Positions 1,951-46,264 of a stretch of 64,000 nt of DNA are shown here, one piece after another. Positions within the stretch are counted from its first letter, which is position 1; each line of letters begins with the position of its first letter. Source of the stretch: Turneriella sp. (lineage in GTDB: Bacteria > Spirochaetota > Leptospiria > Turneriellales > Turneriellaceae); assembly GCA_046346875.1 (NCBI GenBank), contig JAXMHG010000006.1, positions 54,478 to 118,477 on the forward strand, written 5' to 3'. A program made the position numbers and the translations under genes. Below the pieces are notes generated by a model, which saw nothing but the letters and a program-made list of their open reading frames with translations, made no database searches and was not told where the DNA came from.

Positions 1951-3516
1951 TCAGAGCACCTTCATGACCACCATGGTCATGTCGTCGTGTTGTTCAGCGC
2001 CCGAGGCAAACTCGTCGAGGTCACGCACGAAGTTCTCGATGATTTCTTTTGGGTTGAGGTTCGCGTATTCGGTCAGCTTTTCGCGCACGCGCTTCAGGCT
2101 GAATTCTTCTTTTGCGGTATTCCAGCATTCGGTAATACCGTCGGTATAGAGCATCACGATGTCGCCGCTGTTCAGCTGCATCTTTGCCAGCTTGTACTGG
2201 TTCTCTTCTTCAATACCCATCGGCAGGCCTTCTAGTTTGCTGGCGGTGCAGATCTTGCGGTCGGCCCGGTAGAGGAACAGCGGGCCATGGCCACCGTTCG
2301 AAAACTCCAGTGTTTTTGTGGCGGGGTCAAAAATGAAGAACTGGATGGTGGCAAACTTGTCGATGTGCGCTTCGCCGCACATCACGCGGTTGATCGTGCG
2401 GATGATCGTGTCGCCGCGGATGGTATTAAAAAGTTTCAGGTATGTGGACACAACGGTTTTGATCAAAACCATCACGAGCGACGCCGAGATGGATTTTCCG
2501 CTCACGTCCGAAATCAGCACGGCGATACGACCATCGCCGAGCATCTGGAAGTCGTAGTAGTCACCACCGACGCCCTTGGCGGCGCGGGTGAAGCCCTTGA
2601 TCTGGTACTCGGGTTTCTTCAAAAAGCGCGAAGGGTTCATCCCTTCCTGGATTTCTTTTGCCTGTCGCACCTGGTCGTTGAAGACGGCCTGTTCTTTTGC
2701 CTCTTCACTCGCCTTCTTGAGGCTCGCGGTCATCTCGTTGAACTGTTTAGCCAGCTGTCCCAGCTCGTCGCTGCCTAGCGGGGGCAAGGTGACGTCGAGG
2801 TTGCCTTTGCCGACTTCGGCCGCTCCTTTTGACAGGACTTTTACCGGTTTAACGATGAAGCGGGAAAGCAGGTAAGCCGCAAAAAGAGCCGCGATAAAAA
2901 AGATACCTCCCACGATGAGCAGCTCGATGAGGCTTGCGCGAATCGACTTGTTGATGTACTCGTCGGTGACCGCGACCTGTGCCACCCCGAGCAGAGGAGG
3001 GTTAACTTTGACGAAGGGGTGAAAGACCGGGCGGTGAAAGTATTGGACGTTGATGTCTTTGTCTCCGAGAAACGCTTTTTCTATTCGGTGGCCTAAGGCT
3101 ACAGGAGAGGCGACAATGGTGTCCCAGTGCGCACGAACTGTTTCTATACCGTCCCGCTCCACTTCTTTCTGCTTTTCGCCGAGCTCTTTGCCCGTACGGT
3201 TGATGAGCGAATTTTTTTTCGGGGGTACGTAGACTGCGCCAATCGTAAACCCCGGCAGGCCCTGCGCATTCTGCAGCGAGTCGGCGAGCGCCAGGTCGTC
3301 GCGGTCCAGAATTGCCCGCGAGGCGATGAAGGTTAGACTCGCGAGCTCCTTCTTCGCGGTGGCCGAGGCAGTCTCGGTAAGAATATTCTTTTTCTCCCGT
3401 GCCACGTAGATTCCCATCGCCACGAAAACGGCGGTGATCAGGGCGACGATGAGCAGGGTGAGCTTAAATTGCAGGCCAAAACGCACGGTGACGGCATTTC
3501 GCTGCAAAATTGACAC
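1951..3516 (-). CDS. Membrane HAMP + PP2C/SpoIIE (RsbU-like) Ser/Thr phosphatase
   Basis: Two TM helices, HAMP (DELGQLAKQFNEM), VGGDYYDF, DVSGK, YTDGITE, QHDDMT. Confidence 0.88.
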   Translation of the reverse strand: MSILQRNAVTVRFGLQFKLTLLIVALITAVFVAMGIYVAREKKNILTETASATAKKELASLTFIASRAILDRDDLALADSLQNAQGLPGFTIGAVYVPPKKNSLINRTGKELGEKQKEVERDGIETVRAHWDTIVASPVALGHRIEKAFLGDKDINVQYFHRPVFHPFVKVNPPLLGVAQVAVTDEYINKSIRASLIELLIVGGIFFIAALFAAYLLSRFIVKPVKVLSKGAAEVGKGNLDVTLPPLGSDELGQLAKQFNEMTASLKKASEEAKEQAVFNDQVRQAKEIQEGMNPSRFLKKPEYQIKGFTRAAKGVGGDYYDFQMLGDGRIAVLISDVSGKSISASLVMVLIKTVVSTYLKLFNTIRGDTIIRTINRVMCGEAHIDKFATIQFFIFDPATKTLEFSNGGHGPLFLYRADRKICTASKLEGLPMGIEEENQYKLAKMQLNSGDIVMLYTDGITECWNTAKEEFSLKRVREKLTEYANLNPKEIIENFVRDLDEFASGAEQHDDMTMVVMKVL

Positions 3517-10168: not shown

Positions 10169-10783
10169 ATGAAGAAATCGACGTTCATTTACGCCGCGGC
10201 CCTGAGCGTGATGGCAGCGCTGCCGTCAGCGACAATGGCTTTAGGCTTTGAAGCAAAGGCAGGGGTATCATCTGTTCGGGCAGCAAACGACAAGGCAGCC
10301 GTTGACGCTGCATTGGCTCTCGATCTGCGTCTCGAGCGCTTTTTCGCTTTCGTTCCGGAACTCAATTACCAGTCAATTGGCTTTGATGTTGCGGGTGCTA
10401 CAGTCGCCGGCGCCGGTATCGGTGGTGCGGTCACAACTTCGCGCACGTATCACACTTTCATTCCAATGGCCAATATGCGCCTCTACATCCCGATGGGCGG
10501 TGAAGACGTGCCTGCAGTTCAGCCTTACGTAACAGCGGGTCTGGGTTATGGTTACTCAATATACAACCAAAAGAACCCTGATGCGAACGATAGCATGAGC
10601 GGTTTTATGTACCAGGGTATGCTGGGTCTGCAGTTCAACATGGGTATGCTGACCGAAGGTTCTGCTTCTTCTACCAACCTGGTGCTCGAAGCGGGTTACC
10701 GCGGCGGCCAGATGGAAAAGAGCGGAGTAAAATTTGACTGGAACGGCTATGTTATCCGTGCCGGTGTAAACTTCCAGTTCTAA
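10169..10783 (+). CDS. Outer membrane beta-barrel protein (about 8 strands)
   Basis: AGGAG RBS, signal peptide, alternating amphipathic strands, C-terminal Phe (VNFQF). Confidence 0.8.
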   Translation: MKKSTFIYAAALSVMAALPSATMALGFEAKAGVSSVRAANDKAAVDAALALDLRLERFFAFVPELNYQSIGFDVAGATVAGAGIGGAVTTSRTYHTFIPMANMRLYIPMGGEDVPAVQPYVTAGLGYGYSIYNQKNPDANDSMSGFMYQGMLGLQFNMGMLTEGSASSTNLVLEAGYRGGQMEKSGVKFDWNGYVIRAGVNFQF

Positions 10784-14633: not shown

Positions 14634-14699
14634 CGGCCAGCAGCGCACAATTGCTGCGCGCTATTCGTTGTGGCATGAGTTTTGCTGCAGCGGGGCAGG

Positions 14700-16502
14700 A
14701 TGCTCGAACTCAAGTACGGTAAACGGCGGGTTGTCAAGTATCGCGGGGCAAAAACCGTCATTGGTGGTCTGACACCCAAAGACAAGATTGATATTCTGAT
14801 GTATGTCAGCAAAGAGCTGTCTACTATCAATGATACCCAGCTTCTTTTTGATCGTGTGATCGAGCTCTGCTCGGAGATTTTTGAGGCTGATAACGTTACC
14901 GTACGCATAGAAGAAGCGGGTCGGCTCAACCCGGTTGCGTTCTTACGCCAAACGACCCCCGAGCGCAGGCCACTCGCAGTGGGCGAGGGTTTTTCCGGTT
15001 CGATTTTCACCAGCCAGCAGTCGCGGCTCATCTACGATCTTGCACAACACCCCGAATACCTCGACCCGGGTGAAGAAACATTGTGCGTCATCTGCGCCCC
15101 CATCAGTGTGCGTGAAGAAAAACTGGGCACCCTCGCAGTCGAGAAAAATACTTCGCACTTCTACAAGCGCGATGATCTCGAGATCCTCGAAGCCATGGCT
15201 GCCCAGATCGCGCTGGCAATACTCAACGCGCGACTGATAACAGGTATGCTAGACGCGCAGAAGGTGCAGAAGCGCATGAATTCGCAGTTGCAGTTCGACC
15301 TGCGCATCGGCCGTACTGTACAGTCGCAGATTATCCATTCGGATATACCGTCCTTCAGGGCAATCGACATTAAAGCCGCGTACGAGCCAATGGTCGAGGT
15401 CAGCGGCGACTATTTCGACTATTACCGCTCGCATGAGTCGCTGACCGTGATCATCGCCGATGTATCCGGGCATGGGGTACCAGCCGCGCTGATTACCATG
15501 GCGCTGCATTACCACTTCAGGTTGCTTAGCGCACAGGGGTTGAGCCTGCTCGAGCTGTTGTCACAGCTCAATGAGCATATGAAACCCATTCTGCCCTCGG
15601 GTATCTATTTTACCGCCCAGCTGCTGCGCATTCACAGCGACTACAGCTTCACCTTTGTAAACGCGGGACATCCCAAGATGCTGCATTTTTCTGCCATGAG
15701 CAGTGAACTGCTGGCGCAATACGACACACCGGGGTTTCCGCTGGGCATTGCGCCGTTTGATGTACGCGAATATGAAGAGGTGAGTGGAAAGCTGCGTCCG
15801 GGTGAAACGCTGGTGCTGCTGACCGACGGTTTCGCGGAGCAGCAAAATAGCAGCCACGAACAGCCGGGGGCGGAGAAAGTCGTATCCTGGCTGCGCGCTG
15901 CGCTGTCTGAACCTTCCCAGGCGATTGAAGCATTCATGCAGTCTTTCAAGCTCTACCGCGGGGACGAGCCAAACGGCGATGACCTCACTGTGCTCACCCT
16001 GCATTACAACCTGAGGCACCTCGAGGCCGAAACCATGGTATACCAGAGCCGCAGTCGCATGCGCTCCGCCGATTACGCCGGCGCACGGCAGCTGGCGCTT
16101 TCGGCGCTCGCCGTGCGACCACAGCACCAGGACGCCCTGATTATTGTGGGTAAACTGGCCCTGTTGCAGCGCGACTTCCGTACGGCGTCGCAATACCTGG
16201 CACAGGCCTGCGCGCTGGATGACCATGTCGATCCGCAAATTTTGCTGCTGGCGGGGCACGCCGCGTACAAGGCAGAAGATATTTCATCGGCAAAACGCTT
16301 TCTCAAGCTGCTCTTATCGGAAGAACCCCAGAACATTAAGGCTGCATTGCTGCTCATTCGCTGTTACGTGCGGGCCCGCGAACCGCACAAGGCTACGCGC
16401 ACACTCAATGCTGCGCTGAAGTTTGCACCGCAAAACGAAAAATTGCAGCAGGTGGCGGATTTTCTGCGAAAAAAAGACATGCCTGTTCCGGCCGCAGTGT
16501 AG
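14700..16502 (+). CDS. GAF - PP2C/SpoIIE - TPR phosphatase
   Basis: GAF (ICAPISVREEKLGTL), VSGDYFD, DVSGHGVPAAL, LTDGFAE, GDDLT, C-terminal TPR repeats; start at 14682 or 14700. Confidence 0.85.
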   Translation: MLELKYGKRRVVKYRGAKTVIGGLTPKDKIDILMYVSKELSTINDTQLLFDRVIELCSEIFEADNVTVRIEEAGRLNPVAFLRQTTPERRPLAVGEGFSGSIFTSQQSRLIYDLAQHPEYLDPGEETLCVICAPISVREEKLGTLAVEKNTSHFYKRDDLEILEAMAAQIALAILNARLITGMLDAQKVQKRMNSQLQFDLRIGRTVQSQIIHSDIPSFRAIDIKAAYEPMVEVSGDYFDYYRSHESLTVIIADVSGHGVPAALITMALHYHFRLLSAQGLSLLELLSQLNEHMKPILPSGIYFTAQLLRIHSDYSFTFVNAGHPKMLHFSAMSSELLAQYDTPGFPLGIAPFDVREYEEVSGKLRPGETLVLLTDGFAEQQNSSHEQPGAEKVVSWLRAALSEPSQAIEAFMQSFKLYRGDEPNGDDLTVLTLHYNLRHLEAETMVYQSRSRMRSADYAGARQLALSALAVRPQHQDALIIVGKLALLQRDFRTASQYLAQACALDDHVDPQILLLAGHAAYKAEDISSAKRFLKLLLSEEPQNIKAALLLIRCYVRAREPHKATRTLNAALKFAPQNEKLQQVADFLRKKDMPVPAAV

Positions 16503-30763: not shown

Positions 30764-30848
30764 GTGTTGTCTGCTTCTTTGCACCGCCAAAAAGAGAAAA
30801 TTTGATAGGGTGTAAAGTACAACCGGGCCCGGTGCGTACCTGGGGGGC

Positions 30849-31400
30849 CTATTTCTTTTTGTCGCCGGACGTCACGGCGCAGTTGCAGCGTTCGCTGGTG
30901 TATTTATAGAACTCACCAAAAAATTCAGCATCGAAGAAGCCAAAGAGCTCACGGAACAGCTTTTCATCAATCGAGGTGAGCTCGGCAAAACGCCAGGTTG
31001 CCCCGCCATCGGTAGAGACTGCCAGCACATTGTAGCGCAGGTTCATGGTTTCTTTTTCCATTTGCCACTCGCTCTTGCGCTCTACCAGGGCAAAAAGCTG
31101 GCCTTGCAGGTAGTAGATGCGGTCAGGCCTGATGATGGAGAATTTCTTTAACCTGATGTTCTCTTTCCGGTTCGATTCGAACTCCGCCCTGATGCGTGCG
31201 GCTGTAACCGAGGCCCCGCCTGTGCGATCGAGAACAGCCTGTGCCGTGTAGCGCACCAGGGTGTCGGCGTCTTCGCGCTGGAACGCCTCAGTCATCTCGA
31301 CTGCCGAACGGCGTACACGCTCAGCCAGGTCTTCGGCTGCCAGAGGTTGGTGCAGAGAGAACGCGGCACAGATCAGGAAGGGATAAATCTTTTGTTTCAC
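30849..31400 (-). CDS. Hypothetical exported protein
   Basis: GTG start, signal-peptide-like N-terminus, alpha+beta (NTF2-like) pattern. Confidence 0.65.
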   Translation of the reverse strand: MKQKIYPFLICAAFSLHQPLAAEDLAERVRRSAVEMTEAFQREDADTLVRYTAQAVLDRTGGASVTAARIRAEFESNRKENIRLKKFSIIRPDRIYYLQGQLFALVERKSEWQMEKETMNLRYNVLAVSTDGGATWRFAELTSIDEKLFRELFGFFDAEFFGEFYKYTSERCNCAVTSGDKKK

Positions 31401-31442
31401 GGGCCATGGCCTGTTTGTGCGCCCGGGTGAAAATAGTTCTTA

Positions 31443-31465
31443 CAGGCTCCTGGAAAAGGAACCTG
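31443..31465. terminator. Hairpin CAGGCTCCT-GGAAA-AGGAACCTG (same family)
   Basis: Imperfect inverted repeat 14 nt downstream of the SCO stop. Confidence 0.5.
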
Positions 31466-31479
31466 CTAATGGAAAGGGC

Positions 31480-32181
31480 TTATGTTCCTTCGGTTCTGAG
31501 CTGCCCGAGCTCACGGTTCAGGCGTTCAAGGTCGGGCAGGCCCCGCGTACGGTAGATGCCGCGCAGGTAGAGACCCGTGTCGAGCAGGTAGACCGATTCG
31601 GTATGCAGAAAATCCGCCGCATCTTTTGAGCCGCGTACAGTGACGTCGGCCTGGAAAACGGAACGGGCAAGCTCATAAATTTCGCTTTTGCTGCCTGTAG
31701 TAAAGTGCCAGTCTGCGAACGGAACCTTGTTGCGCGCACGAAACTGGCGCAGTTCTTCGGGTTTGTCGTGTTCAGGGTCAACACTGATAGAAAGGAAAAC
31801 GACATTGCGCCGGTCATTCAGCTGCTCGCGCAGGCGTTTCACATTTGCCGTAACCATTGGGCAAATACCCGAACAGCGGCTGAAGAAAAAAGAAACAAGA
31901 ACGTACTTGCCGCTGAGATCGGCAGTTGCCAGCGCTTTGCCATCGCTGTCGGTGAGCGATAGGTTCGACAGGCGGCGCAGGTCTGGCGGCAGTGCCTTAC
32001 CGTCGTTCGTCCAGTAAGGATTCATGTCTGCACCTTTAAAAAACGGAACTTTGCCGGGTATCGGTGCGTAGAATTCGGTAAGTTCGCGCGGCATCTCGGG
32101 CCTCTTGTTGCCCGCGCAGGCAGCAGCAAGAAGCAGCAGGACGATCAGCGTTTGCCGGTTGTTTCTTTTACACTGTTGCAC
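31480..32181 (-). CDS. SCO1/SenC copper chaperone, lipoprotein
   Basis: Lipobox LAAAC, FFFSRCSGICP (CxxxC), FLHT (His ligand). Confidence 0.92.
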   Translation of the reverse strand: MQQCKRNNRQTLIVLLLLAAACAGNKRPEMPRELTEFYAPIPGKVPFFKGADMNPYWTNDGKALPPDLRRLSNLSLTDSDGKALATADLSGKYVLVSFFFSRCSGICPMVTANVKRLREQLNDRRNVVFLSISVDPEHDKPEELRQFRARNKVPFADWHFTTGSKSEIYELARSVFQADVTVRGSKDAADFLHTESVYLLDTGLYLRGIYRTRGLPDLERLNRELGQLRTEGT

Positions 32182-32714
32182 AATTTTACTCCGGGCATTC
32201 CCTGTTCGAGATTTTCGGCATAGACCTCGTTGCGGTATATTTGTCCTGATTCACGCCAGTGCTTATACACCAGCGCACGGCCTTCTCTGTCGTAACGCTT
32301 GAACTCCGCCACCTTGCCGTTGGTATGCCACGACCAGAATTCATTCACGTAGCGGTCGTCTTTGAATTCAGCGTAAAAACGGTTTGTGCCGTCGGGAAAA
32401 TAGCCGCGGTGCACACCGGTTTTTTTGCCTTCGCTGAAGAGCCGCTCTTCGACCAGCATACCGTTTTCAGCCCAGGTGCGTTGCGGGCCATGTTCCAGCC
32501 CATTGCGGTAGGTCGTAACCTGCCTAGCGTTCACGCCGCCGAATTCGCGTGTGACTTCACCATCAAGCGGTGTACCCCGGTAGAGCAGGCGGCCGTTGCT
32601 GATCGCCAGTTGTTTTTCGTCGAAAGTAACCTGGTACTGTTTACGGCAGCCAGCAAAAAGAAGCAGCGCGAGCAGCAAGGGGGAGCGTATGCGGTTCTGC
32701 CACAGCGCGCGCAT
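32145..32714 (-). CDS. MORN-variant (YwqK-like) repeat lipoprotein
   Basis: Lipobox LFAGC; repeats YRNGLEHG, GKKTGVHRGYFPDG, WHTNG; C-terminal GMPGVKLC. Confidence 0.8.
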   Translation of the reverse strand: MRALWQNRIRSPLLLALLLFAGCRKQYQVTFDEKQLAISNGRLLYRGTPLDGEVTREFGGVNARQVTTYRNGLEHGPQRTWAENGMLVEERLFSEGKKTGVHRGYFPDGTNRFYAEFKDDRYVNEFWSWHTNGKVAEFKRYDREGRALVYKHWRESGQIYRNEVYAENLEQGMPGVKLCNSVKETTGKR

Positions 32715-32737
32715 GGTGTCTTTTTGCCTTTCTTCTG

Positions 32738-33739
32738 TCAGTTTGATACCGAACCGATGGTACCGCGGAAATACGAACCCATCAGCGTTTTGATCGTGGC
32801 AGTCGGATCCTGCGCATAGTGGTAGTGGTAGGTGGCGGTGGTCATGTGCCGGGTTTTGGTCGTATGGCCGTGCAGCTTGTCGAGCGAAGTCGCGCTGTCA
32901 CCGTTGCCGGCACCAGTGTCGTTTGCAGAATTGCCGGTTGCAGCAGCAGTGGGGGCGGTCAGCGTTACATCGTCGCTGGTGTCGGCCGTGCCATTGTCAC
33001 ATTTTTCTGCATAGATCAGGTAGCCGTCGAGGGCCACACCGATGAGGGTTGAGTCATTCATGTTCGAAGACAACTTGTTCACAGCTGCATGGTGGTGAAA
33101 GACGCCTTGGTTTTGCGGGTGGCCACCGTAGTTATCAAATGTAGCGGCTTCAACAGCAAGCGTGTCGGGTGGGGCCGCCGCGTTGTTAAAGACCGTGATG
33201 CCATTCGCGGTGATGCCAATCGCGACGAGACCACCCTGCGAGCTTGTGAGCGTACCTGATTTTAGGGTGGGTGTCTGCGGTATGGTAAAGGTCAGGTTTT
33301 GTGTCGAGATGACATTGGTTCCTGCAGAGATGTTCGTACCTGGTAAGGCCTCCCAAAGTGTTGCATTTTGCCCGGTCGTGCAATTCGTTGAACCTGCGCC
33401 ATGGGAACCGCAGTAATAGAAGCTGTTATGGTTCGGCAGGTTAACCGACTTAAAGATATAGTTGGTACCAGAGGTATAGGCAACCTGGCATTTGAAGTTG
33501 TCCTTTGCCCATGCAGGCATCGCAGAATCTATCGTCGTGTTCACATTCGTGATACAACCCGTCGTGGCATTGAGGGTTGCGCTTGTCGGGCTGATCGTTG
33601 CGCTCGTTGTCGGGTAGGATGTCGAACTAGAGCTGGTCGTCGTTGTCGATGCCTCTGTAGTAGAGTCGCTGTTCCCGGCACAGGCGGTCAGTACGCCAGC
33701 GATAAAAATTGCAAAAATCGGATACTTGGGTTTTTTCAT
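32738..33739 (-). CDS. YHYH-domain lipoprotein
   Basis: AGGAG RBS, lipobox VLTAC, Ser/Thr tether, GGHPQNQGVFHHH, GVALDGYLIY, LDKLHGH...TYHYHY. Confidence 0.85.
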   Translation of the reverse strand: MKKPKYPIFAIFIAGVLTACAGNSDSTTEASTTTTSSSSTSYPTTSATISPTSATLNATTGCITNVNTTIDSAMPAWAKDNFKCQVAYTSGTNYIFKSVNLPNHNSFYYCGSHGAGSTNCTTGQNATLWEALPGTNISAGTNVISTQNLTFTIPQTPTLKSGTLTSSQGGLVAIGITANGITVFNNAAAPPDTLAVEAATFDNYGGHPQNQGVFHHHAAVNKLSSNMNDSTLIGVALDGYLIYAEKCDNGTADTSDDVTLTAPTAAATGNSANDTGAGNGDSATSLDKLHGHTTKTRHMTTATYHYHYAQDPTATIKTLMGSYFRGTIGSVSN

Positions 33740-33881
33740 GGGTTACTCCTGAACAGTAGATCATCCTATAAGACAAACCGGACATAAAAAAAGTGACCCA
33801 TGAGCAAAAGTACTGGAGGCGGTATGCAAAGTCTGGCCACTGGACTTCCGCTTCTGCGGTAATTTTGGATGAGAGGTTATC

Positions 33882-34490
33882 ATGAAGAAAAAAATTCTAT
33901 CCATCATGCTTTTTGCCAATCTACTGGCCGTAGGTCAGGTCTCAGCCATAGGTGCCGGCGCATGGGTTGGGTATAACTTTGCAGCAGGCGTCGACAACGC
34001 GTATTGCGAATCGCAAATTGTCAGCCGTGCTGGAGAATGTTCGAAAGGTGGTCTCGCAGTGGGTGGTGACCTCTGGCTCTTTGGTATTCCGGCGTTGCCT
34101 GTCAGATTCGGCCTTGGAGCTGCGTATATTCCCGTCCAATACCAGAAATACGACATTACGACAGGCTCAGGCGGTTCAAGCTCGTTTGTCTCGATGGAGG
34201 TCAAAACTCGTTATCTGCCGGTTTATGCCCAGGCACGTGTCGACCTGATGGGCTTTTTCGCTGGCGTTACGGCAGGGTATGGTATCTCGTTGTCCGATGT
34301 GACCGTTTCAGGAAATACCTCCTCAAATTCTGCAGTTGTAAGTTCAGCATCGGGGGCATTTGGCATCGGTGGCTTCGCGGGTTATGGCATAGGGCTTGGC
34401 CCGGTCAGTATTGAAGGTGGCGCACGCCTGTTCACTATATCGGGTGCAACCAACATCATGCCGTTCGTTGGTGCTACTCTAAATCTCTAG
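33882..34490 (+). CDS. Outer membrane beta-barrel protein
   Basis: GAGG RBS, signal peptide, Gly/aromatic amphipathic strands. Confidence 0.75.
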   Translation: MKKKILSIMLFANLLAVGQVSAIGAGAWVGYNFAAGVDNAYCESQIVSRAGECSKGGLAVGGDLWLFGIPALPVRFGLGAAYIPVQYQKYDITTGSGGSSSFVSMEVKTRYLPVYAQARVDLMGFFAGVTAGYGISLSDVTVSGNTSSNSAVVSSASGAFGIGGFAGYGIGLGPVSIEGGARLFTISGATNIMPFVGATLNL

Positions 34491-34507
34491 CAGGTTTCAC
34501 GGTTACA

Positions 34508-34573
34508 CTGGCGCCCTTCAGTTATGAGGCATAATCTGAAGGGTGTCAGCTACTCTTTGCGCAGTAGCGCAAA
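34508..34573. terminator. Two adjacent hairpins after the OMP gene
   Basis: 14-bp stem 34508-34521/34536-34549 (2 G-U pairs) with inner TTATG/CATAA stem; TTTGCGC-AGTA-GCGCAAA at 34556-34573. Confidence 0.5.
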
Positions 34574-34724
34574 TACCTCTGTCCTATTGTTTAGTGAAAA
34601 CTGCTGGAAAAGCTGAGCGATTTATCTTCTCTTGAATATGGCACTTCCGCCATTCTATGTCCACCCGGTTGTTTGTCATCTCGTGTTATTGGCCCGCGGT
34701 CTCATCGCTGAGCGGTAGTCAATA

Positions 34725-44929: not shown

Positions 44930-46264
44930 ATGACCGACGAAATCTGGAAGTTTATCTCAAGCGCCAACGAAGCTGATTTGCAGGCGGAGCTTATCCGTTA
45001 CGTCTCGCTTTTCCAGATCAATGAAGTGCTCTCCTCGACACTTGAATATGACGAAGTCTTGCGGCTGGTATTGCAGGAAATGCGCACGCTTTCGGGCGCC
45101 GAAATTGCCTCTATCTTCCTTATCAATAAGAAAGACCAGGTGCTGGAATTCGCCGCTACAACCGACGAAAAAGCAGATTTGCTCAAGAACATCCGTGTGC
45201 CGCTCGGTAAGGGAATTTCCGGGTATGTTGCGCAAACCGGCGAGTACGTAAACCAGAGCGATATACAGAGTGATACGCGCTATTATAGAGAAGTAGATGT
45301 AACACGGGGCGGGGAGACCAAGTCGTATCTTTGCGTGCCGCTGAAACTGCGCGGCGAGATTAAAGGCACGGTGCAGCTCATGAACAAAGCGGGCGGGCAC
45401 CCGTTCAGCGACGCAGATGTCAGGCTGATGCTGAATTTCTCCAGCCAGGCGGCAATGGCGATTGAGACTTCGCTCCTGCACCGCGAAGCCCTTACCAAAA
45501 AGGCGTTTGAGCGTGATGTGCATCTTGCAGCAGACATACAGCGACAGTCTCTGCCGAATACGATGCCGCAGGTGCCGGGCTATTCTCTGTTTGGGCATAC
45601 CGAACCTGCGCAGGATGTCGGTGGTGACTACTTCCAGTTTATTAATCACGTCGACCGCACGGGTAACAATAAACTCGATATCATCGTTGCCGATGTAGCC
45701 GGAAAGGGAATTCCCGCATCGCTCATCGTTTCGAATTTTCATGCAGCGCTGCAGCTGCTTTCACCACTCTACGACACGCTGGGCGAACTTGCCTTCCAGC
45801 TGAATAACTTTATGCGGCAGAACCTGATTACTGGTACCTTTGTGACGGCATTCATAGCACGACTCGACGCCGCCACAGGTAGAATGCATTACGTCAGCTG
45901 CGGGCATAATCCCCCCTTTATCTTTCGCAAGGCTGACGGGCAGTATACGGCTGAGTTGCTGCAACAGAGCGGCACTGCCTTCGGGTTACGCTACGATATG
46001 GAATACCGGGTACACAGGTTGGATTTTAAGCCCGGCGAAACCCTTTTGATCTATTCCGATGGTATTACCGAAGCCATGGATCGGGAAAATGTGCAGTACG
46101 AAACCGATCGCATGAACGCAAGCGTGATTGCGACTCTGTCAAAGCAGGGTAGCGCAAATGTTGCCGAGCAGATAGTGGAGAACCTGCGCAAAGATGTTGA
46201 TCGTTTTCGCCAGGGTGCAGAAGTTAATGACGATCTTACAGTTGTTTGTCTGCAGAGGGAATGA
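44930..46264 (+). CDS. GAF - PP2C/SpoIIE phosphatase
   Basis: GAF (SYLCVPLKLRGEIKG), VGGDYF, DVAGKGIPASL, YSDGITE, NDDLT. Confidence 0.88.
   Translation: MTDEIWKFISSANEADLQAELIRYVSLFQINEVLSSTLEYDEVLRLVLQEMRTLSGAEIASIFLINKKDQVLEFAATTDEKADLLKNIRVPLGKGISGYVAQTGEYVNQSDIQSDTRYYREVDVTRGGETKSYLCVPLKLRGEIKGTVQLMNKAGGHPFSDADVRLMLNFSSQAAMAIETSLLHREALTKKAFERDVHLAADIQRQSLPNTMPQVPGYSLFGHTEPAQDVGGDYFQFINHVDRTGNNKLDIIVADVAGKGIPASLIVSNFHAALQLLSPLYDTLGELAFQLNNFMRQNLITGTFVTAFIARLDAATGRMHYVSCGHNPPFIFRKADGQYTAELLQQSGTAFGLRYDMEYRVHRLDFKPGETLLIYSDGITEAMDRENVQYETDRMNASVIATLSKQGSANVAEQIVENLRKDVDRFRQGAEVNDDLTVVCLQRE

Follow-up and report, generated by a model that had tools for sequence, protein, structure and literature searches.

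Proteins of the SCO family are mostly discussed as assembly factors of cytochrome oxidase. The canonical members (SCO/SenC/PrrC, together with PCuAC in CuA and cbb3 assembly; structure 1XZO) are membrane-tethered, periplasm-facing proteins with a thioredoxin fold, a CxxxC motif and a His. In Streptomyces, the Sco protein of the sco operon delivers copper to GlxA, a radical copper oxidase, and also to cytochrome oxidase, and an SCO protein therefore serves an extracytoplasmic non-respiratory cuproenzyme in this case. The mtoX-SCO1/senC-mauG operon, described in Hyphomicrobium and Ruegeria, encodes a copper-dependent methanethiol oxidase (PMC5739008). The subject of this work is a three-gene locus coding for a YHYH-domain lipoprotein, a MORN-type lipoprotein and an SCO-family lipoprotein (hereafter, the trio), found in a 64,000-nucleotide stretch of Turneriella sp. 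(assembly GCA_046346875.1, contig JAXMHG010000006.1, positions 54,478 to 118,477), which was analyzed in full and is referred to as the window. That an SCO can be reserved for a client other than an oxidase is already known; what is new in this system is the YHYH client family, the obligatory MORN protein bearing a Cys tail and an extracytoplasmic function (ECF) sigma factor that is often present as a candidate controller.

When compared with the mtoX operon, the locus showed the same pairing of a putative periplasmic non-oxidase metalloenzyme, with conserved His ligands, and a private SCO, and three trio loci of other genomes added a CCP/MauG gene. Nevertheless, the client of the mtoX operon is an SBP56 beta-propeller, whereas that of the trio would be a YHYH protein without any solved fold relative; the trio has an obligatory MORN lipoprotein with a Cys tail, MauG is only sporadic in it, and the copper of its client is presumed. 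The Streptomyces sco operon differs in the family of its client, in the lack of a MORN partner and in a Sco that is shared with cytochrome oxidase.

The three open reading frames (ORFs) lie head to tail on the minus strand of the window, to which all the coordinates of the trio given below refer. The YHYH gene (32738–33739, 333 aa, PF14240) comes first, followed after a spacer of 23 nt (32715–32737) by the MORN-type gene (32145–32714, 189 aa) and then by the SCO gene (31480–32181, 233 aa, GTG start, PF02630), which overlaps the MORN gene by 37 nt (32145–32181). The YHYH signal peptide ends in the lipobox VLTAC with Cys20 (33680–33739), and the lipoboxes of the other two proteins are LFAGC (Cys23) and LAAAC (Cys22), respectively. 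Hence, the ORF calls confirmed the preliminary description of this DNA, made from its letters only, in which three co-directional lipoproteins with these lipoboxes, a 23-nt gap and an overlap had been reported.

The distribution of the three genes indicated that the YHYH-MORN-SCO trio is a real conserved functional unit, present in at least four bacterial phyla. More than 110 non-redundant loci of four phyla contained the three families side by side, a grouping that is therefore far beyond chance. A genome scan in which each species was represented once gave 75 YHYH loci, of which a single one lay outside Leptospirales; by tblastn and ORF classification, the trio was located in 56 of the 65 Leptospirales loci whose flanks were long enough, always in the order YHYH-MORN-SCO. 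The bearers included Leptospira interrogans, L. noguchii, L. weilii, saprophytic Leptospira, Leptonemataceae and Turneriella. The Leptospirales loci without the trio were mostly extra YHYH paralogues of genomes that also carry it (loci L007/L025, L027/L074, L039/L022 and L056/L028, in our own numbering).

A metagenome scan seeded with a three-sequence alignment of Bacteroidota-type YHYH proteins yielded 80 further loci. MORN and SCO genes immediately followed YHYH in 55/55 Bacteroidota-type metagenome loci with enough flank, a figure that describes the subfamily fetched by trio-derived patterns and not all of the 1,738 YHYH clusters. The order was MORN-SCO in 36 of these 55 loci and SCO-MORN in the other 19, and since the linkage survives this change of gene order, the functional coupling of the three genes is well supported. 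Furthermore, the window SCO had homologues outside Leptospirales, and all those sampled lay in a trio: one in an unassigned metagenome contig (L080), two in Crocinitomicaceae of the Bacteroidota (L082 and L083), one in Ignavibacteria (L165) and one in Akkermansiaceae of the Verrucomicrobiota (L164). The recurrence of the trio across phyla, which the preliminary description had set as its own check, was thus observed. Unbiased clustering of the 1,792 ORFs of the loci gave no other recurrent neighbours except an upstream ECF module (see below), and no gene fusions among YHYH, MORN and SCO were found. The nearest relative of the window locus was in a Spirochaetota metagenome-assembled genome (L005), with a YHYH protein 93% identical, and the nearest named relatives were Turneriella and Leptospiraceae.

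The paralogous copies of the trio provided a second line of evidence. The pairwise identities divided the Leptospirales trios into two types, A and B, and the same split was obtained for YHYH, MORN and SCO. At least four Leptospiraceae genomes carried both sets (L019/L073, L035/L070, L037/L071 and the tandem pair L036:5472-10023), and the SCO of L070, for instance, was 67–76% identical to the type-B SCOs of other genomes and only 35% identical to the type-A copy that the same genome encodes. Because the A/B split is congruent in the three families, the trio must have been duplicated as a whole, with SCO and MORN staying with their own YHYH. Such a history fits poorly with an SCO devoted to cytochrome oxidase only. 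In some loci (L038:5983-8735, L097:5001-6586, L006:8001-10741 and L045), two or three YHYH genes stand in tandem and share one MORN and one SCO; these arrays, along with the orphan YHYH paralogues found elsewhere in the genome, suggest that a given SCO/MORN pair may work for more than one YHYH protein.

Some variants of the layout were detected. In L. interrogans and L. noguchii, 0.6–1.1 kb without any ORF of at least 70 aa separates MORN from SCO (L001:7436-8468, L016:9430-10544 and L015:9427-10044), whereas both genes abut in other Leptospira. A subgroup of 10 loci with the SCO-MORN order (e.g., L132:5784-6191 and L140:5798-6223) has an extra secreted protein of about 135–145 aa, without any Pfam match, encoded between YHYH and SCO.

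The SCO protein matched PF02630 (SCO1-SenC) with 88.3 bits (E=5.4e-25; cut-off 22.8) and was aligned to the B. subtilis Sco 1XZO (E=4.5e-20), which placed C103 and C107 of its CxxxC motif (C103-SGI-C107, 31861–31875) on C45 and C49, and H193 (DFLHTE, 31603–31605) on the copper-ligand His. In an alignment of 107 non-redundant trio SCOs, C103 and C107 were conserved at 1.00 and H193 at 0.99, in agreement with the intact CxxxC and His previously noticed, and the lipobox Cys at 0.95. The protein therefore holds a complete predicted copper-binding triad, C103/C107/H193, and its signature is SCO-type, not TlpA-type. The trio SCOs form a distinct subfamily, which differs from the canonical proteins by an N-terminal extension with the motif LPyy...dF.P.W (32011–32049; P46 1.00, P55 0.97 and W57 0.98), by its co-evolution with YHYH and MORN and by the lack of linkage to oxidase or PCuAC genes. 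As regards this last point, Pfam scans of every large ORF detected no cytochrome oxidase, cop or ECF sigma gene in the 64-kb window, and cox, cco and PCuAC genes were not recurrent neighbours in about 160 related loci, which extends the original remark that no oxidase gene lies nearby. PCuAC (DUF461) was not matched by any of the three trio proteins in Pfam either.

The YHYH protein was recognized by PF14240 with 98.4 bits (E=6.8e-28; cut-off 25), and it contains the motif that gives the family its name (Y304-H305-Y306-H307). The AlphaFold2 (AF2) model was confident (mean predicted local distance difference test, pLDDT, of 87; predicted template modelling score of 0.83) apart from the Ser/Thr-rich flexible tether, residues 21–55 (33575–33679), with pLDDT values under 50 for residues 1–39. 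The Ser/Thr tether and the two His clusters of the preliminary description, GGHPQNQGVFHHH (207–217) and LHGH...YHYH (289–307), were all found. In the model, the HxH pairs are predicted on beta-strands, with H215 and H217 on or beside the same strand. The fold gave no Foldseek match with E<1 in the PDB, and the sequence search of the PDB returned no relatives, while the profile search gave chance-level matches only. Against BFVD, Foldseek matched the protein only to other YHYH-domain proteins, from cyanophages and giant viruses. Neither Pfam, PDB folds nor PDB profiles related it to multicopper oxidases or cupredoxins.

Conservation was analyzed in 138 trio-set sequences and in 145 family-wide representatives; the lipobox Cys20 was conserved at 0.93 in the former. 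The residues E197, D202, H207 (GHP), H215, H217 and D238 (LDGY), encoded at 33026–33151, were conserved at 0.97 or more in the trio set and this first cluster at 0.92 or more family-wide, with H207, H215, H217 and D238 reaching at least 0.99 in both sets. The second cluster (32819–32881), formed by D287, H290 and H292 (HGH), H305 and H307 (YHYH), was conserved at 0.86–0.94 in the trio set (0.90–0.94 for H292, H305 and H307), and H290 fell to 0.32 family-wide. Hence, the candidate for the universal metal site of the family is the set of three His and one Asp, and the second His cluster is, judging from these conservation values, an elaboration. The type-B YHYH proteins were found to lack the HGH motif, and that of L073 has a Cys in place of H305. 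A Zn2+ site of three His and one Asp with a hydrolase role had been predicted for YHYH domains (Iyer et al., 2021; PMC7824862), and these four residues are exactly H207, H215, H217 and D238.

The several cysteines that the preliminary description had attributed to the YHYH protein are not a general feature: C62, C84 and C247 are confined to Leptospirales, with an overall conservation of about 0.4–0.55. Since they are not conserved across phyla, what SCO and YHYH have as a common link would be the metal site rather than a disulfide. Searching 1.84 billion representatives with a profile retrieved 1,738 members of PF14240 at E<=1e-3 (about 1,700 clusters, defined at 50% identity). The YHYH domains of phage tails, giant viruses and diatoms have the same invariant core of three His and one Asp as the trio-type proteins; the former are fused to tail or lectin modules, without SCO or MORN partners, whereas the latter are free-standing lipoproteins with H290 mostly conserved and an extra conserved N-terminal subdomain (P102, S106 and Y108).

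The middle protein of the trio scored 23.3 bits for MORN_2 (PF07661), under the cut-off of 29.6, and its homologue from L082 reached 31.8 bits. Its AF2 model, of moderate confidence (pLDDT 75), consists of a single-layer beta-sheet, a beta-hairpin array of 14 consecutive strands (residues 27–165), whose best Foldseek matches in the PDB were the MORN domain of SET7/9 (E=5e-4) and MORN1. The residues 170–189 are predicted to be disordered (pLDDT <50), and this C-terminal tail carries the motif G172-x-P-G175-x-K-x-C179 (32148–32207). In 109 sequences of four phyla, G172 and C179 were the most conserved residues of the protein (0.99 each), and the lipobox Cys23 was conserved at 0.94. An invariant Cys179 on a flexible tail, a feature absent from the preliminary description, suggests that MORN may be more than a passive adaptor, with an active role of its own.

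In public annotation, this gene would be taken for the antitoxin of a toxin-antitoxin or immunity system: the NCBI name of one homologue (P0176) is “toxin-antitoxin system YwqK family antitoxin”, and the weak match to MORN_2 repeats agrees with that label. However, the protein is exported, as shown by its conserved lipoprotein signal, no toxin gene was found beside it in any locus, none of the PADLOC defence models was matched and its constant partners are YHYH and SCO. These results make the “YwqK family antitoxin” not credible, and the antitoxin function can be considered effectively refuted, as anticipated by the preliminary description, where the label had been called misleading.

Upstream of the trio, an additional module was present in many relatives. 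Among the 48 metagenome loci that extended far enough upstream, 30 had, at a short distance before the trio, the genes for an ECF sigma factor, a protein of about 100 aa with a single hydrophobic stretch and a periplasmic protein of the Metal_resist/LTXXQ type; L080:3052-4550 and L165:2207-3694 are examples of this layout, which numerous loci of Bacteroidota and Ignavibacteria share. In pathogenic Leptospira, the genes for an LTXXQ protein, an ECF sigma factor and an 87-aa membrane protein, in this order, were located 0.2 to 6 kb upstream of the trio (e.g., L001:3319-4586). The module was missing from the window locus and from most Leptospirales loci. LTXXQ/Metal_resist proteins belong to the Spy/CpxP/CnrX superfamily, and the presence of an ECF sigma, a single-pass protein of about 100 aa and an LTXXQ protein before the trio of these relatives, not of the window, resembles CnrH-CnrY-CnrX and Spy/CpxP/ZraP. 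Nevertheless, the gene order differs from that of CnrYXH, the match to solved Spy was weak (E=0.04) and the metal ligands of the sensor are putative. The comparison with CnrX structures yielded only this weak Spy match, and the Metal_resist protein was not called a CnrX orthologue.

In L. interrogans, the sigma factor by the trio matched LIC_10559 in length, in mass minus Met (21,087 Da) and in gene order (L001:3788-9206), from which we infer that the trio of this species corresponds to LIC10561 (LA3649), LIC10562 and LIC10563. LIC_10559 has been reported as specific to highly pathogenic Leptospira, and a localisation prediction of 2008 for LIC10561/LA3649 was all that the literature offered under these locus tags. 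The sigma factor was not equated with the published sigX (LIMLP_03680), whose consensus TGRCAC-N15/16-TCGTT was absent from eight loci. The ECF operon of Leptospira has the promoter GGAACC-N16-GTCAGA, and no ECF-type promoter shared by this operon and YHYH was found in this genus. Direct ECF control of the trio in Leptospira is therefore putative.

Redox genes were also observed in some of the operons. A di-haem CCP/MauG gene (PF03150) lies between the LTXXQ gene and YHYH in L130 (3844-4905), L133 (3715-4950) and L142 (3825-4892), and a di-haem cytochrome c gene directly follows SCO in L080 (6923-7786). This association with the trio is sporadic and, by analogy, would echo the mtoX-SCO1/senC-mauG operon.

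All these results indicated that the trio probably builds or services an envelope metalloprotein, with copper as the most likely metal. The reading that we prefer, with a probability of about 0.45, is that the dedicated SCO metallates or redox-conditions YHYH, which would be a copper-dependent and probably redox-active enzyme, while MORN would act as the scaffold, with Cys179 contributing to Cu(I) or thiol transfer. The three proteins would work as a unit in a membrane-tethered envelope module: SCO would capture periplasmic copper by means of C103, C107 and H193, the transfer would run from SCO to the His sites of YHYH, and MORN would bring both together, its Cys179 arm serving as a transient thiolate partner, either as a Cu(I) relay or through a mixed disulfide with the CxxxC of SCO. 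In many lineages the trio may be controlled by an envelope- or metal-stress ECF sigma factor with its anti-sigma and an LTXXQ sensor; the presence of this module upstream in many lineages suggests an inducible rather than a housekeeping function. The mechanism put forward in the preliminary description, a YHYH cuproprotein loaded by its own SCO, is thus plausible. The broader claim, in which YHYH would be a family of copper oxidoreductases with a new fold, matured by SCO, the Cys tail of MORN a novel relay and the whole an ECF-controlled maturation system, is considered possible but doubtful.

Several observations weigh against a copper-dependent YHYH enzyme matured by SCO. The copper in YHYH is deduced solely from the linkage to SCO, and the same His/Asp core occurs in YHYH proteins of phage tails, giant viruses and diatoms, all of them without SCO. 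The invariant D202, D238 and E197 fit a hydrolase just as well as a copper site, and the grouping of H207, H215, H217 and D238 into one putative site comes from their conservation, not from the coordinates of the model. Orphan YHYH paralogues exist (L007, L027, L032, L039 and L056), and the complete linkage in metagenomes carries the sampling limit given above. Finally, the region upstream of YHYH in Leptospira is sigma-70-like and has no motif in common with the promoter of the ECF operon.

The serious rival explanation is a zinc enzyme: YHYH would be a hydrolase that cleaves an envelope polymer, and SCO would act, without any copper, as a thiol:disulfide oxidoreductase for Cys179 of MORN or for another thiol. 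We regard it as rather unlikely. Thiol-oxidoreductase activity is documented for SCO proteins, and MORN offers one invariant Cys as a substrate. The prediction made for phage-tail YHYH domains falls on the residues that are invariant in the whole family, the acidic E197 and D202 suit a hydrolase, and the invariant core is common to YHYH domains that have no SCO. However, a pure thiol oxidoreductase does not need the SCO His, which is dispensable for disulfide exchange, and H193 is nonetheless conserved at 0.99 in a protein of SCO type and not of TlpA type. A hydrolase also gives no obvious reason for the inseparability of YHYH from SCO in four phyla or for their joint duplication, and the c-type cytochrome and MauG genes that sporadically appear in the operon hint at redox chemistry.

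Copper could also be handled without being the cofactor of an enzyme. A role in copper stress or buffering, with YHYH as a His-rich sink or cuprous oxidase, SCO and the Cys of MORN as a Cu(I) relay, and induction by the ECF/LTXXQ module, would agree with the module found in 30/48 metagenome loci and in pathogenic Leptospira, with the many His residues of YHYH, with the invariant copper ligands of SCO and with the tethering of all three proteins to the membrane in the envelope. This role was judged unlikely: YHYH has a small and precisely conserved site set in a large globular protein, as in an enzyme and not as in a His-rich sponge; no CopA, CusCBA or multicopper-oxidase gene recurred near the trio; the window locus and most Leptospirales loci have no ECF module; and the resemblance of LTXXQ to Spy is so weak that metal sensing is itself putative. 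A function in oxidase assembly, with an ordinary SCO for CuA/CuB and YHYH and MORN as copper-acquisition helpers that replace PCuAC, was considered more improbable still. It is the canonical function of SCO, and Leptospira and most Bacteroidota are aerobic, but no cox, cco or PCuAC genes accompany the trio either in the window or recurrently in the related loci, and several genomes keep a pair of SCOs, each of which has co-evolved with a separate YHYH and MORN. The frequent ECF association implies stress-inducible and not housekeeping expression, and YHYH is a large protein whose invariant acidic residues are enzyme-like, which sets it apart from Met/His-rich chaperones.

The literature search found no paper describing the trio or assigning a function to any bacterial YHYH protein; for YHYH/PF14240 it returned only the zinc-hydrolase prediction cited above and a note on abundance in diatoms, and for SCO1 and copper in Leptospira it returned nothing. 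An SCO subfamily tied to another client in four phyla would widen the current picture of these proteins. The trio would also open a first route to the function of PF14240, whose roughly 1,700 clusters, spread over bacteria, phages, giant viruses and marine diatoms of high abundance, include no solved structure, and the misleading antitoxin annotation of the MORN partner can be corrected. The trio is small and modular and is found in culturable organisms; in L. interrogans, the putative LIC10561-LIC10563 set beside the pathogen-specific sigma gene LIC_10559 is a concrete set of three genes. If the broader claim is true, the trio would represent a new three-component system of cuproenzyme maturation under ECF envelope-stress control, also in pathogenic Leptospira, and SCO-matured copper oxidoreductases might reach into phage tails, giant viruses and diatoms.

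Regarding the limits of the operon, the preliminary description had placed its end at a hairpin. A 10-bp stem with a 5-nt loop was indeed predicted 3' of the SCO stop codon (31442–31466), starting 13 nt past it, and the fold of the whole region reached -24.4 kcal/mol (z=-2.6). There was no adjacent U-tract and the terminator scan did not flag the hairpin; therefore, its role as a terminator is uncertain. The DNA of the locus was detected in activated-sludge and wastewater metagenomes. In RNA-Seq-labelled libraries from wastewater (runs X25-X28), contigs bridged the YHYH/MORN and MORN/SCO junctions (window 30800–34600). This constitutes weak evidence of transcription; DNA carry-over into these libraries is possible because the coverage also spans the intergenic region and the divergent gene.

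The surroundings of the trio in the window include TypA, signalling proteins and housekeeping genes. On one side, a divergent gene (33882–34490, plus strand) codes for a 202-aa protein with a signal peptide, possibly a small outer-membrane beta-barrel, for which the OMP_b-brl protein encoded at 10169–10783 served as comparison. On the other side, a co-directional gene (30849–31400, minus strand) codes for a secreted protein of 183 aa that belongs to no family. Both flanking genes are also present in L005, L018 and L021, and they fall outside the cross-phylum core. Additionally, three genes for SpoIIE-type PP2C phosphatases with HAMP or GAF sensors were found in the window (1951–3516, 14682–16502 and 44930–46264), set among many GGDEF/EAL, histidine-kinase and cyclase genes, which makes this an unusually dense signalling neighbourhood.

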